Positions 9,246 to 13,155 of a stretch of DNA of 64,000 bases are shown here, piece by piece (the stretch's first letter is position 1; every line of letters begins with the position of its first letter). A program made the position numbers and the translations under genes. Source of the stretch: Candidatus Woesearchaeota archaeon. GTDB lineage: Archaea > Nanobdellota > Nanobdellia > Woesearchaeales > GW2011-AR9. A model generated the notes under the pieces. It was not told the origin of the DNA. It ran no database searches and was given only the letters and a program-made list of their open reading frames with translations. The stretch spans positions 316,359 to 380,358 of the forward strand of contig JABHDY010000003.1 of assembly GCA_018676855.1 (NCBI GenBank), written 5' to 3'.

Positions 9246-10304
9246 ATGAAAATAGCTATTGTTACGAACAAAGACCATTCCCCACTTGGTTGGGGAACAA
9301 CACCACAGAGTGTTACAGTAGTAGCAGATGTTCTTCGAGAAAGTGATACAAAAGTTTATGTTCTTGATGTTCCTGATAGAAAGGCACTCGAAGAACAACA
9401 TGAAACAATAAATGATATGGACTTGGTTTGGCCAAACGCATACCATTATCAAGAAGATGAAAAAGTGGTTTCTTTACCTCGCTCATTAGAATCTATAGGT
9501 GCACGATTAATTGGTCCCGGATCAGAATCATTAGAAACTATGTTACTTAAAGAGAGATGCCAAGAAAAATTGAGGGATGGAGGCGCATCAACACCAAAGT
9601 TTGTTTCTGTAAATGGAGAATCTCCCGATGAAATTGAACGCATGATTAATAACGTAAATTTACAATATCCAGTCATCGTGAAATCAGCAGAGGGATCAAT
9701 TAGCAGAGGAATACTTCCAGATTCGGTCAAAGAAACGAAAGATGAAATTCCACAGTATATTGAGAGATTAAGGAGTAAACTGGGCGCAGGAAACATTTTA
9801 GTTGAAGAATACGTTGATGGGCCAGAATTTACAGTCGCGATATTGGGAAATGGTGACACTCAAAAGATATACGCCGTTTACACAGTCATAAGTGATCCAC
9901 GTGTTACTTCAAGAAAATATAAATTTATGGACGGAGAAACAAGACCAGGAGGTATAATTCGAGGAGACATAACATTAGAACCAGTAACAAAACAAGAAGA
10001 AGTAGAAAAGTTAAAGGGAGTGGCAGAAAAAGTTTATTCTTCATTAGGATTATCAGACTGGACACGATTTGATGGACGTTTTGATAAATATGGAGTTCCA
10101 AAAGTGTTTGATGTTAATGGGATGCCAGGATTATCGTTCGACAGAAGTATAACACCCCAACAGTTTTCTGTTCTTTATCCAGGAAAAAATAAAGAAGAGG
10201 TGTTCCAAGGAATTGTTTATTCAATAGTACATTCTGCTGCAACTCGACATGGAATACATCCACCACCAAAATTAACAAAGAACGCATTATATTTGCATTA
10301 TTAA
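9246..10304 (+). CDS. ATP-grasp ligase, D-Ala-D-Ala ligase (Ddl)-like family
   Basis: ATP-grasp motifs PVIVKSAEGSISRGI, ILVEEYVDGPEFTVAILG, DVNGMPGLS (Ddl-like NTxPGxT variant); N-terminal domain divergent from canonical Ddl; ORF-track start 9237 is GTG. Confidence 0.6.
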   Translation: MKIAIVTNKDHSPLGWGTTPQSVTVVADVLRESDTKVYVLDVPDRKALEEQHETINDMDLVWPNAYHYQEDEKVVSLPRSLESIGARLIGPGSESLETMLLKERCQEKLRDGGASTPKFVSVNGESPDEIERMINNVNLQYPVIVKSAEGSISRGILPDSVKETKDEIPQYIERLRSKLGAGNILVEEYVDGPEFTVAILGNGDTQKIYAVYTVISDPRVTSRKYKFMDGETRPGGIIRGDITLEPVTKQEEVEKLKGVAEKVYSSLGLSDWTRFDGRFDKYGVPKVFDVNGMPGLSFDRSITPQQFSVLYPGKNKEEVFQGIVYSIVHSAATRHGIHPPPKLTKNALYLHY

Positions 10305-10308
10305 AAAA

Positions 10309-11163
10309 ATGGACAATAGACCAATAGGAGTTTTTGATTCAGGAGTTGGAGGGTTAACAGTAGTTAAAGAACTTATGCGAGAACTCCCAAATGAAAATAT
10401 TATCTATTTTGGTGATACTGCAAGGGTTCCCTATGGTTCAAAGTCCATTAAAACCATTGAAAGATTTTCTTTAGAAATTCTTAATTTCTTACTAAAACAA
10501 AATGTAAAAGCCGTTGTTATTGCGTGTAACTCTGCATCGGCAGCTGCACTAAAACTTTTACAAGATATATCGCCAGTTCCAGTTTATGGAGTTGTTGATG
10601 CAGGAGTTTATGCAGCATTAGAAGTAACAAGAAATAACAAAATAGGAATTGTTGGTACAAAAGCCACTATTAGAACGAATGCGCATAGAAACCTCTTTAT
10701 GGAACACAAAACAGGTTTGAAACTTTTCACACAAGCATGCCCCCTTTTTGTTCCATTGATTGAAGAGGGAATGCTTCAATCTCAAATAACAGAAAATGTA
10801 ATTCAAGAGTATCTTAAAGAACTAAAAAACGAAAAAATAGATACATTAATTTTAGGATGTACACATTATCCATTACTTAAAGAGAGAATAGAATCTTTTC
10901 TTGGACCAACAATAAAAACAATTGATCCAGCAATAATGTTAGCAAAACAAATAAAAGAAAACCCATTACTTAATAATGCAAAGAATAAAACTGTTAGTTA
11001 CAAATTTTTTGTAAGTGACGTTCCAGAAGATTTCCTTAGTATAAGTGCCCGGTTCCTTGAAATGGAAAGAATAAATGTTGAGAAGATAGTGTTAGACGAG
11101 ATTCAAATAGAAAAAGTTATGGAAACGTTAGTTCCAGTAAAAACAATTCAAAATGCAAACTAA
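10309..11163 (+). CDS. murI: Glutamate racemase
   Basis: IGVFDSGVGGLTV, FGDTARVPYGSKS, VIACNSASAAAL, LGCTHYPLL signature motifs. Confidence 0.85.
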   Translation: MDNRPIGVFDSGVGGLTVVKELMRELPNENIIYFGDTARVPYGSKSIKTIERFSLEILNFLLKQNVKAVVIACNSASAAALKLLQDISPVPVYGVVDAGVYAALEVTRNNKIGIVGTKATIRTNAHRNLFMEHKTGLKLFTQACPLFVPLIEEGMLQSQITENVIQEYLKELKNEKIDTLILGCTHYPLLKERIESFLGPTIKTIDPAIMLAKQIKENPLLNNAKNKTVSYKFFVSDVPEDFLSISARFLEMERINVEKIVLDEIQIEKVMETLVPVKTIQNAN

Positions 11164-11734
11164 TAATAATAATAAGATAGTTCTGGTTGATTGTGGTAGC
11201 AAGTACATTCAAAGACTTGTAGAGGTACTCAAAACAGATAATAGTAGTGTTGTAAGAATAAAAATTGAAGAACTAGAAAGTCGAGACTTTGATGAAGCAC
11301 ACGGAATTGTAATTAGCGGTTCGCCAACATTATTAACACAAGTTGATTATAGTCATCTTGTAAAAAAAACACAATTATGTGTTGAATCGAAACTCCCAAT
11401 TTTAGGCATCTGTTTTGGACATCAACTTTTAGGATTATATTTTGGAGCAGAAATTACTTTAGGAGAATTAAGAAAAGGAGATGAAGAAATTACTTTGAAT
11501 GAATCTGATTTGTTTAAGAATATTGACAGACAAGTAATTTTGCAAGAAATGCACCGAGAAGATATCACTGTTCCAGACAACTTTGTTCTCATTGGTACGT
11601 CTAATAACACCAAAAATGAAGCGATGAAACATAAAGATCAACCAATTTACGGAACACAATTCCATCCAGAAATATCGGGAGATGTAGGTTCAGTAATAAT
11701 TAATAATTTTATAAAGATTAGTGAAAAACAATAA
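11153..11734 (+). CDS. Class-I glutamine amidotransferase, GMP synthase subunit A (GuaAA)-like
   Basis: ILGICFGHQLL catalytic Cys motif and AMKHKDQPIYGTQFHPE His motif, 193 aa; no adjacent ATP-pyrophosphatase subunit. Confidence 0.7.
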   Translation: MQTNNNNKIVLVDCGSKYIQRLVEVLKTDNSSVVRIKIEELESRDFDEAHGIVISGSPTLLTQVDYSHLVKKTQLCVESKLPILGICFGHQLLGLYFGAEITLGELRKGDEEITLNESDLFKNIDRQVILQEMHREDITVPDNFVLIGTSNNTKNEAMKHKDQPIYGTQFHPEISGDVGSVIINNFIKISEKQ

Positions 11735-11746
11735 TAACACCATACA

Positions 11747-12346
11747 ATGATACCATATATCCAATCAACACCGTACACAACTGCTGCATCATCACTCCTA
11801 ACAATATTACATCATTTGAAAGGCATCCCATTAACGAAAGAGCAAGAATTCAACATTTGGAAAAAGACAGTAAACCTTCCAACAAGGGCCTCGTCAATCT
11901 ACGCATTAGCGTCATATGCACATAAAGAAGGATTAACACCAAAAGTAGTTGTTGAAAAGAAAGAGTACGATTTTCCAGATTATAGATTCTATAAATATAC
12001 AAAGGAAGATATTGACCATGCATCTTTTATAGCAGATTTACACTTAAGAAATGCAAAGAATAATAATATTCAAATTGAGGAACAAGAAATTACAATAAAC
12101 CATATAAAAAATGAATTAGAAAACGATAAAATACTTATACTAAGACTAAACACGAAGCCTATTCGGAATGAAAAAAGAAACACGTCAAATTATGTTGTTG
12201 TTCATGGATATTCAAACCAATATTATCATATAGTTGACCCATTGGTTGGTGGTATATCCGTACCCGAACATGTATTTCATGAATCATTCCAATCGCTTGA
12301 AACGAAAAAATATCGAGATCATCGAATGATTGTTTTCTCAAATTAA
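11747..12346 (+). CDS. Peptidase C39-like (papain-fold) domain protein with predicted catalytic Cys replaced by Thr
   Basis: N-terminus IPYIQSTPYTTAASSLLTILHHLKGIPLTKEQ aligns with the C39-like vPYysQ..ysCGpAslaMvL..g...sqee pattern but has T in place of C; conserved His candidate in VVVHGY. Confidence 0.4.
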   Translation: MIPYIQSTPYTTAASSLLTILHHLKGIPLTKEQEFNIWKKTVNLPTRASSIYALASYAHKEGLTPKVVVEKKEYDFPDYRFYKYTKEDIDHASFIADLHLRNAKNNNIQIEEQEITINHIKNELENDKILILRLNTKPIRNEKRNTSNYVVVHGYSNQYYHIVDPLVGGISVPEHVFHESFQSLETKKYRDHRMIVFSN

Positions 12347-12349
12347 AAA

Positions 12350-13111
12350 ATGTGTCGAATGTTAATTGCCGTTGGAAAAGTACAGATAGGTCCGCTATTA
12401 GATGGAATTACACAAATGGCACTTGATCAGAATTCTACGCATGAATTAAATAAAGATGTTGGACGAGGAAATTTTAAACATCCTGACGGGTGGGGCATCG
12501 CATACATGAAAGACAAAGAATGGGTTATGTACAAATCTACACAAGCAATTTTTGAAGATCCAAAAACGTCAGAGTTACGAGATATTGAAACAGCATGCGT
12601 TATCATTCATGTACGGCAGGGAACAAAGGGAGAAATTGTGAAGGAAAACACGCATCCGTTCAGGTTTCAGAGTGATGAATTGGGAGATTTTATATTTTGT
12701 CATAATGGAACCATCCATAGAGAAATTTCGCATAGTGACCTTTTCAATCCAAAGGGAACAACAGATTCTGAACAACTATTTTATTCAATCCTTACAAAGA
12801 CAAAAAAAAGTTCAATAAAATATGCAATTATAAAAACGTTTGAACAATTTTCTGACCCATTTAGTTCAAACATAATATTTGCATCAAAGAAAAAGTCTTT
12901 CATACATATGAGAGGTACAAAATATCCAACATACTTACAAATGCATATGGGGAAGAAACGAGGACTAAAGATCATCAGTTCTGAACAGTTTCACCATATT
13001 AAGAATATGAAATGGAAAGCATTACAAAACAAAGATTTAATCATAATTAACAATAAAACAGGGAGATGTAAGATCATAAAAATGCGTGAAACCGTCCTCA
13101 CCAAGCACTAA
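12350..13111 (+). CDS. Class-II (Ntn-hydrolase, YafJ/EgtC-type) glutamine amidotransferase-like protein
   Basis: N-terminal MC (Cys2 nucleophile), HPDGWGIAYM, IIHVRQGTKGEIVKENTHPF, FIFCHNGTI motifs. Confidence 0.7.
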   Translation: MCRMLIAVGKVQIGPLLDGITQMALDQNSTHELNKDVGRGNFKHPDGWGIAYMKDKEWVMYKSTQAIFEDPKTSELRDIETACVIIHVRQGTKGEIVKENTHPFRFQSDELGDFIFCHNGTIHREISHSDLFNPKGTTDSEQLFYSILTKTKKSSIKYAIIKTFEQFSDPFSSNIIFASKKKSFIHMRGTKYPTYLQMHMGKKRGLKIISSEQFHHIKNMKWKALQNKDLIIINNKTGRCKIIKMRETVLTKH

Positions 13112-13155
13112 AGTGCCTGGTCTGAACTGAGACGGTTTCTAAACCACGCATTTTT
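13079..13155 (+). terminator. Compound hairpin (10 bp + 8 bp stems with internal sub-hairpin) at the 3' end of the 9.2-13.1 kb operon
   Basis: aaaatgcgtg/cacgcatttt and gaaaccgtc/gacggtttc perfect inverted repeats, inner gcac-taaa-gtgc hairpin, followed by T-run. Confidence 0.4.

Follow-up and report, generated by a model that had tools for sequence, protein, structure and literature searches.

A woesearchaeotal operon linking a rare Ddl-fold ligase to glutamate racemase, with a possible role in making a D-glutamate-containing small molecule

The window analysed here, a 64,000-nt stretch of contig JABHDY010000003.1 from a Candidatus Woesearchaeota archaeon, contains a compact island of five plus-strand genes, g1 to g5 (9246-13111), whose products are a Ddl-like ATP-grasp ligase, a glutamate racemase, two amidotransferase/amidohydrolase-type enzymes and a papain-fold protein lacking its catalytic cysteine. 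We propose that the island carries out amide ligation and hydrolysis in making a D-glutamate (D-Glu)-containing small molecule, a reading to which we assign a probability of about 0.45. The arrangement is best explained as one transcription unit made up of two evolutionary layers, g1-g2-g3 and g4-g5. New here are the rare Ddl-fold ligase family, its obligatory linkage in archaea to MurI and a class-I glutamine amidotransferase (GATase), and an apparent exchange of ligases in situ before a putative pseudo-peptidase. A literature search returned no paper describing the g1-g5 cassette or MurI in Woesearchaeota. The features of the island are as follows.

9177-9200, plus strand: putative promoter box of 24 nt, GAATAGAAAGATATTTAAATAAGT, containing a TATA-like core and lying 46-69 nt ahead of the g1 ATG
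9246-10304, plus strand: g1, 352 aa, carboxylate-amine ligase of the ATP-grasp type and Ddl-like fold, belonging to a rare and distinct family
10309-11163, plus strand: g2, 284 aa, glutamate racemase MurI
11153-11734, plus strand: g3, 193 aa, standalone class-I glutamine amidotransferase or C26-like hydrolase
11747-12346, plus strand: g4, 199 aa, DUF3335 (C39-like) papain-fold protein without the catalytic Cys
12350-13111, plus strand: g5, 253 aa, YafJ/EgtC-type class-II (N-terminal nucleophile, Ntn) amidohydrolase or amidotransferase
13074-13159, plus strand: compound hairpin followed by T5, overlapping the final 36 nt of g5, putative operon terminator

Operon organisation and predicted proteins

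The five genes are separated by 4, -11, 12 and 3 nt. These gaps were recomputed from the open reading frames (ORFs) and are identical to those in a preliminary description of this DNA, which had reported a tight plus-strand operon with gaps of -11 to +12 nt closed by a strong compound hairpin. The hairpin also holds up: the minimum free energy of 13074-13159 is -34.3 kcal/mol, against a mean of -17.1 for shuffled sequences (z = -5.9), and none of 200 shuffles scored as well. Its 5' arm lies within the end of g5 and TTTTT follows directly on its 3' side. A T run is the main requirement for archaeal termination, and we infer that the hairpin serves as a transcription terminator; a simple terminator scan made no call at 13074-13159, where the loop is too long for it. 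The next gene, encoding a glutaredoxin, begins at 13272, 160 nt beyond g5. The same locus is also present on metagenomic contigs of 0.62-0.93 Mb. For g1, the ATG at 9246 matches the MKIAI start of the homologues better than the GTG at 9237. All five fold assignments of the preliminary description agree with the Pfam domain matches given below.

g1 matches the Pfam domain Dala_Dala_lig_C (67.6 bits), has the three-domain ATP-grasp fold and finds Ddl as its top fold match. Whether it is a canonical Ddl was a check proposed in the preliminary description, and the answer is negative: identity to Ddl is 17-23%, and the scores fall far below the Ddl cut-offs (67.5 against 245.65 bits for TIGR01205, 68 against 243 for NF002378). 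Residues K146, R274, D276, D289 (E in DdlB) and N291 line up with the ATP/Mg2+/phosphoryl-transfer motifs of VanA and DdlB, the DdlB reference residues being K144, R255, D257, E270 and N272, with E15-S150-Y216 and the H63 region marking the D-Ala1 site. The E. coli DdlB sequence used was checked at its published key positions, where it is self-consistent. The alignments show that g1 retains the Lys that binds ATP, a Ser-rich loop, and the metal/phosphate motifs Arg/Asp and Asp/Asn. The first 70 residues of g1, by contrast, do not align to this DdlB sequence; where Ddl has its substrate motifs, the g1 family carries the invariant motifs LGWGT (GW..T) and VWPNAYH (W.N.Y). The Lys-Tyr pair of Ddl is present in the window's g1 and is not conserved across the family. 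Compared with the Ddl/Van ligases, g1 shares the fold, appears to have a replaced N-terminal region for the first substrate, and has no mur gene context. Because it combines this fold with conserved ATP, Mg and Arg motifs, g1 is probably an active ligase.

The g1 family is rare. A collection of 5.8 billion sequences yielded 17 homologues at E<=1e-5, the close relatives of g1 number 11, and about 19 clusters at 50% identity were found at E<=1e-30 among 1.84 billion representatives. g1-type loci number 14 in 185,579 species genomes, all of them bacterial, and 12 in a metagenome collection; these two scans added no archaeal g1 lineage to those from the protein search.

g2 is, by its sequence, a bona fide MurI. 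It scores 96.9 bits to Pfam Asp_Glu_race, 242.7 bits to the glutamate racemase equivalog TIGR00067 (cut-off 146.65) and 235 bits against a solved bacterial glutamate racemase, 3out_A. The DSGVGG10 motif is present, and so are both catalytic cysteines, Cys73 (ACNS72) and Cys184 (GCTHYP183).

g3 matches PF00117 (GATase class I) at 106.4 bits and PF07722 at 32.2 bits. The catalytic triad of class-I GATases and C26 hydrolases is intact, with Cys87 in GICFGHQ and His171 and Glu173 in FHPE. The best solved relatives are archaeal GMP synthase subunits A (104 bits, E 6e-29), but g3 falls below both GuaA cut-offs (111.8 against 198 bits for NF001975, GuaAA; 107.9 against 172 for TIGR00888) and is not named GuaA by NCBI. 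No GuaA-C-type ORF was found among the scanned ORFs of the window. Models of the small subunit of carbamoyl-phosphate synthetase (CPS) are matched at 55-61 bits. The closest homologues of g3 (50-54% identity) are exactly the genes that follow g1-g2 in relatives; outside this clade the nearest are standalone GATases of ~185 aa, mostly from Bacteroidota. A homologue of g3 in another Woesearchaeon (locus L031; L numbers denote related loci) again lies near a glutaredoxin gene, a placement that was dropped as evidence since the other neighbours are unrelated.

g4 matches PF11814, DUF3335 ('Peptidase_C39 like'), at 51.4 bits (cut-off 25). The preliminary description had called this protein Cys-less, and it does contain no cysteine at all. 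Among 20 family members the nucleophile position, residue 12, is Thr in 17 and Cys in three, His153 is kept in about half and Gln6 in at least 90%; having no Cys, g4 does not carry the complete Gln, Cys and His set of a papain-like cysteine peptidase. Many residues are invariant in basic and aromatic blocks such as FPDYRFY and the R/N/K-rich RLNTKPIRNEKRNTSN. An AlphaFold2 model shows a papain-like domain (predicted local distance difference test score 94.2), whose fold matches are the pseudomurein endoisopeptidase PeiR (top), PCAT C39 domains and phytochelatin synthase, at template modelling scores of ~0.5. Woesearchaeota and Nanoarchaeota hold 172 homologues at roughly 55-70% identity, and g4 is no less conserved than S3Ae, a ribosomal protein encoded next to the island (43-57% identity). 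Since the Cys is absent and the His kept in only about half the family, yet the whole protein is highly conserved, g4 is probably a pseudo-peptidase or a non-proteolytic binding module. The idea that DUF3335 proteins might be RimB, the partner of RimK, was dropped, the literature describing RimB as retropepsin-like.

g5 matches PF13230 (GATase_4) at 84.5 bits (cut-off 23) and 1te5_A at 44 bits. It begins MC, placing the nucleophile at Cys2 as expected of a YafJ/EgtC-type class-II enzyme, and also has HNG118 and TDSE138. It does not reach the EgtC equivalog (47 against 218.65 bits), and the GATase_4 genes that hold the corresponding slot in L028 and L029 share 39% identity with it. With the catalytic residues of g3 and g5 kept, and MurI above its equivalog cut-off with both Cys, these three enzymes look active.

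Gene neighbourhoods and the promoter box in relatives

Five sequence types can be told apart among the archaeal g1 proteins, and in all five lineages g1-g2-g3 are contiguous and tightly spaced. The full g1-g5 set occurs in the window species only. L012, whose g1 is 43% identical, carries only g1-g4, with a 249-aa gene, a NagZ-like glycoside hydrolase family 3 (GH3) gene and a gene for a small Cys-rich membrane protein downstream on the opposite strand. The remaining three types, whose g1 is 56-57% identical (the 56% clade), have only g1-g3, followed by the GH3 and Cys-rich genes; g4 and g5 are absent. The preliminary description had taken the five genes as a co-conserved unit, and here it has to be revised. 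Its neighbourhood check turns out likewise, since g4 is far commoner than g1 (172 homologues against 11) and elsewhere follows a GCS2-type ligase gene, often together with g5. g1-g2-g3 form the conserved core, which can do without g4 and g5. We therefore read the operon as a mosaic of a recently acquired three-gene module and an older two-gene remnant. The GC content of g1-g5 (0.31-0.37, against a window average of 0.35) gives no compositional sign of recent transfer.

Other genes come and go around the core. In one type of the 56% clade, a gene of the alanine dehydrogenase (AlaDH) family follows g3, as seen in L013 and L034. All three types of the 56% clade have an Lrp/AsnC-like regulator gene divergent from g1, which fits a role in amino-acid metabolism; the window has 340 nt of non-coding DNA in its place. 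At 314-317 aa, these regulators are about twice the usual length (L007 377-1321, L010 6951-7904, L034 5960-6901). A tblastn search of the window gave no remnants of an Lrp-like regulator, GH3, GCS2, AlaDH or GNAT gene. In six of the eight related arrangements, the slot holds the NagZ-like GH3 gene together with that of the small Cys-rich membrane protein, the GH3 scoring 84.6 bits to NF003740, below the cut-off of 207. The GH3 genes lie at L007 3888-5302, L010 10470-11884, L012 8297-9714, L028 8881-10298 and L030 6587-8061. They are always translationally coupled to the gene for a 109-117-aa protein that has an N-terminal membrane helix, a Cys-rich domain and no family match. Nine related loci share with the window a glutaredoxin gene next to the island.

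The bacterial relatives of g1 are 27-32% identical to it and come mostly from marine Gammaproteobacteria (for example Neptunomonas, Alteromonas and Leucothrix), with a few from other bacteria. None of their 25 loci has MurI as a neighbour, and 19 have a convergent GNAT gene of ~170 aa. The bacterial ligase/GNAT pair could be a system for a dipeptide-like metabolite with self-protection. The tail-to-tail arrangement of the two genes is found at L008-L009, L015, L017-L020, L022-L027, L036, L038-L039 and L041-L043.

In genomes that lack g1, g4 sits in the same slot, between the rpS3Ae/metallophosphoesterase genes and the glutaredoxin gene. In L029 it follows a GCS2-type ligase gene by 33 nt, with a GATase_4 gene downstream. 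In L028 it follows a gene for a 433-aa protein by 25 nt, and a GCS2 ligase gene and a GATase_4 gene, 11 nt apart, come next; in L030 it is preceded by glycan-related genes. The L028 433-aa protein (4674-5975), directly upstream of DUF3335, has no Pfam or NCBIfam match, and its place at the ligase position suggests a further, unrecognised ligase type. DUF3335 thus adjoins three ligase types: the g1 module, GCS2 and, as a candidate, this protein. The window, L028 and L029 all have a GATase_4 gene as well.

The promoter box links these arrangements. GAATAGAAAGATATTTAAATAAGT occurs once in the window even when three mismatches are allowed, with 0 occurrences expected by chance, and the pattern GAATAGAAANNTATTTAAATAAGT is kept without change upstream of g1 in L012 (4283-4306) and upstream of the GCS2 ligase gene in the outgroup L029 (4667-4690). 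We infer a promoter function for the box, which may combine promoter and operator for an island-specific regulator. Because the same box precedes either ligase type and a DUF3335 gene lies behind both, the simplest history suggested by these sequences has the ATP-grasp/MurI/GATase-I module taking the place of a GCS2-type ligase in situ, with later loss of g4, g5 or GH3 in different lineages. The shared box also argues that the two halves of the operon are functionally connected.

Proposed pathway and rival explanations

In the pathway that we propose, the first layer, g1-g2-g3, would be a laterally acquired module of bacterial type. MurI (g2) would supply D-Glu from L-Glu, and g1 would activate a carboxylate as the acyl phosphate and couple it to an amine, giving a D-Glu-containing, dipeptide-like amide. 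g3 might then deliver glutamine-derived ammonia to the g1 reaction or its product, yielding a D-Gln- or isoGln-type amide, or it might instead hydrolyse a gamma-glutamyl bond. The second layer, g4-g5, would be the remnant of a cassette common in Woesearchaeota, where it stands behind GCS2-type ligases and the same box. g4 may act as a non-catalytic binder or adaptor for the substrate or product of the ligase, and g5 may remove a gamma-glutamyl or amide group, following an 'attach then trim' logic like that of EgtA and EgtC. Exchanging GCS2 for g1-g3 would shift the chemistry from L-Glu to D-Glu. D-Glu is the proposed substrate of g1 because the racemase travels with the ligase in every archaeal occurrence and never does so in bacteria; bacteria possess MurI and D-Glu anyway and need no linked racemase. 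The roles of the two amidohydrolases, and a small molecule rather than a protein tag as the product, are likewise presumed. A more specific proposal is put forward tentatively, and we think it rather doubtful as a whole: in a clade of marine Woesearchaeota, a bacterial-derived Ddl-fold ligase with MurI would have replaced a GCS2-type gamma-glutamyl ligase, the product would be a small molecule built on D-glutamate, for instance an amidated D-Glu dipeptide or a gamma-D-glutamyl thiol, and the Cys-less DUF3335 protein would be a conserved, non-catalytic partner of interchangeable amidoligases throughout Woesearchaeota.

Several known systems share parts of this scheme. PMC4431377, which cites Iyer et al. 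2009 on this point, describes operons that link different amidoligases as a hallmark of pathways making peptide-derived metabolites. The predicted neighbourhoods of amidoligase, class-II GATase (GAT-II) and peptidase, to the extent that PMC4431377 sets them out, resemble the window in placing a ligase, an Ntn amidohydrolase and a papain fold in one operon. The preliminary description had drawn this general resemblance, and the adjacency of ligase and DUF3335 genes and the GATase_4 genes of the window, L028 and L029 bear it out, within the outline given in that source; the co-occurrence is not universal, the 56% clade being without g4 and g5. The EgtA (GCS2)/EgtC (GATase_4) pair of ergothioneine biosynthesis has its parallel in outgroup Woesearchaeota, where GCS2-type ligase and GATase_4 genes are the 11 nt apart seen in L028. 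Set against either system, so far as the cassettes are outlined there, the window differs in using a Ddl-fold ATP-grasp ligase with MurI and a class-I GATase, and in a papain fold without nucleophile. Ergothioneine synthesis in particular is not matched by EgtB/EgtD-type genes here, and the EgtC and EgtA equivalog cut-offs are not reached.

The N-acetylglutaminylglutamine amide (NAGGN) pathway, which uses the Ngg ligase/acetyltransferase, the AsnO amidotransferase and an M42 peptidase (PMC8070244), is alike in non-ribosomal dipeptide formation around Glu/Gln, in glutamine-dependent amidation and in having a peptidase gene in the operon; its GNAT partner is mirrored by the bacterial g1 relatives. 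It is unlike the island in that no sequence relationship was detected, g5 is YafJ-type and not asparagine-synthetase-type, and a racemase is present in the window operon only. Membership of the NAGGN system was rejected, g4 having no NCBIfam match to any model, the NAGGN-system GNAT included, and the system is kept as an analogy. In CPS, as here, the gene of a carboxylate-activating ATP-grasp enzyme adjoins that of a small class-I glutaminase, in line with the CPS matches of g3. MurT/GatD, which amidates D-isoGlu in lipid II, likewise joins an ATP-dependent enzyme to a glutaminase, with D-Glu as a candidate acceptor here. The locus falls short of Ddl, GuaAA, EgtC, EgtA and a catalytic C39 peptidase alike, and so belongs to none of the characterised systems against which it was tested.

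The strongest rival to D-Glu anabolism, though an unlikely one, is the salvage of bacterial peptidoglycan fragments from prey or neighbours. The NagZ-like GH3 of relatives would remove N-acetylglucosamine, g3, g5 and g4 would cut gamma-D-glutamyl or isoglutamine amide bonds, MurI, which is reversible, would turn released D-Glu into L-Glu, and g1 would re-ligate or re-activate the fragment. The GH3 and Cys-rich pair in six of eight related arrangements and the AlaDH-family gene after g3 in L013 and L034 fit such a scheme, as does the pseudomurein endoisopeptidase that heads the fold matches of g4. Published proposals credit Woesearchaeota with lytic transglycosylases that degrade peptidoglycan and with living as predators (PMC9723730, PMC10936187). 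The window itself has no GH3, however, and GH3 occurs in genomes without MurI or g1 (L028, L030), so that its presence does not depend on the D-Glu module. It is hard to see what an ATP-consuming ligase would do in catabolism, g4 lacks the catalytic Cys in a family often without the His, and the island showed no amidase, LD-carboxypeptidase or transporter. Next in likelihood, and improbable in our view, is an operon of coincidence, in which a compact genome co-transcribes genes of unrelated function, g3 being for example the glutaminase of GMP synthase, g5 a housekeeping amidohydrolase and g4 a protein with an unrelated role. The archaeal GuaA subunit A relatives of g3, the loss of g4 and g5 from close relatives that keep g1-g3, and the unrelated context of the g3 homologue in L031 (42% identity) would agree with this, and adjacency may be inertia in a region that is syntenic across Woesearchaeota. 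Against it stand the scores of g3 below both GuaA-N cut-offs and its NCBI name, the spacing of -11 to 12 nt, which implies translational coupling, the amide-bond formation or hydrolysis around Glu/Gln shared by four of the five genes, and the same box preceding alternative ligases that are each followed by g4.

A pathway for a low-molecular-weight thiol or an osmolyte built on a gamma-glutamyl compound is harder still to credit. Its product would be of the gamma-Glu-Cys type where GCS2 is present, and here a protease-resistant gamma-D-glutamyl analogue or an amidated dipeptide osmolyte resembling NAGGN. EgtC, a GATase_4 member like g5, removes gamma-Glu from a thiol precursor, and the outgroup ligases weakly match glutamate-cysteine ligase/YbdK models, but the GCS2 matches lie far under the cut-off (36 against 176 bits). 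The glutaredoxin gene beside the island points the same way, but its adjacency may be plain synteny. The osmolyte variant could draw on the GNAT partners of the bacterial g1 relatives, on the marine habitat and on NAGGN synthesis, in which a ligase likewise works with a Gln-dependent amidotransferase and a peptidase (PMC8070244); the want of any NCBIfam match for g4 counts against it, and nothing thiol-specific or osmo-regulated was detected. A murein-like or pseudomurein-like wall peptide, with g1 as Ddl and MurI giving the D-Glu of the stem peptide, we consider highly improbable. Murein synthesis has two classical D-amino-acid enzymes, MurI and a Ddl-fold ligase, but g1 scores 68 bits against Ddl cut-offs of 243-246 and its N-terminal substrate region is unlike that of Ddl, and pseudomurein, which contains L-amino acids only, has no D-amino acids. 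Neither the island nor 13 related archaeal loci nor the scanned ORFs of the window yielded a Mur ligase, MraY or MurG, and alanine racemase was likewise missing from those ORFs and from the related loci. The preliminary description had argued that murein synthesis does not explain the operon, and these results bear that out.

Several points weigh against D-Glu anabolism itself. g4 and g5 are absent from the 56% clade and are therefore not obligatory steps of a g1-g3 pathway. The archaeal examples are all syntenic close relatives from similar marine samples, so that the co-occurrence of g1, g2 and g3 is weakly independent evidence. Being reversible, MurI could have a catabolic role, and g3, whose greatest similarity is to GMP synthase subunit A, might serve purine salvage and simply happen to lie there. 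The search of this genome for mur genes covers 64 kb. We know of no characterised relative of g1, of no substrate for any of g1-g5, and of no precedent for ammonia channelling between a Ddl-type ATP-grasp enzyme and a GATase.

D-glutamate is regarded as a building block of bacterial cell walls and capsules, and the proposed anabolic pathway, if it is real, would be the first in Archaea dedicated to D-Glu. MurI beside a rare ligase in a wall-less, genome-reduced archaeon would signify either a new D-amino-acid metabolite or feeding on bacterial walls, and either outcome would matter for how DPANN archaea coexist with bacteria or live off them. The apparent exchange of ATP-grasp and GCS2 modules between one promoter and one conserved pseudo-peptidase amounts to a natural experiment, and the locus makes the functions of the DUF3335 and YafJ-type families approachable by experiment.

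Other features of the window

The gene for the archaeal RNase P RNA lies at 58121-58471, adjoining a 940-aa ORF (55178-58003, minus strand) with no Pfam match at E<=0.001. This RNA marks the window as archaeal, and NCBI lists the protein identical to g1 under Candidatus Woesearchaeota. Two neighbouring plus-strand ORFs of ~300 aa (47220-48173 and 48227-49135) are also without Pfam matches. The ORFs of ribosomal proteins L22, S3 and S5 (39878-40810, 38967-39881 and 31636-32592, all minus strand) are ~300-320 aa, about 1.3 to 2 times the usual archaeal length, and the Pfam domains cover them in part; they may reflect extensions or over-called starts.

Upstream of g1, a 72-aa ORF at 8949-9167 was rejected as spurious, being without conservation outside the species. 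About 70 nt upstream of the minus-strand rpS3Ae gene (8922-8991) are 72-77% identical in L028, L030 and L007, and probably represent the S3Ae promoter or leader.

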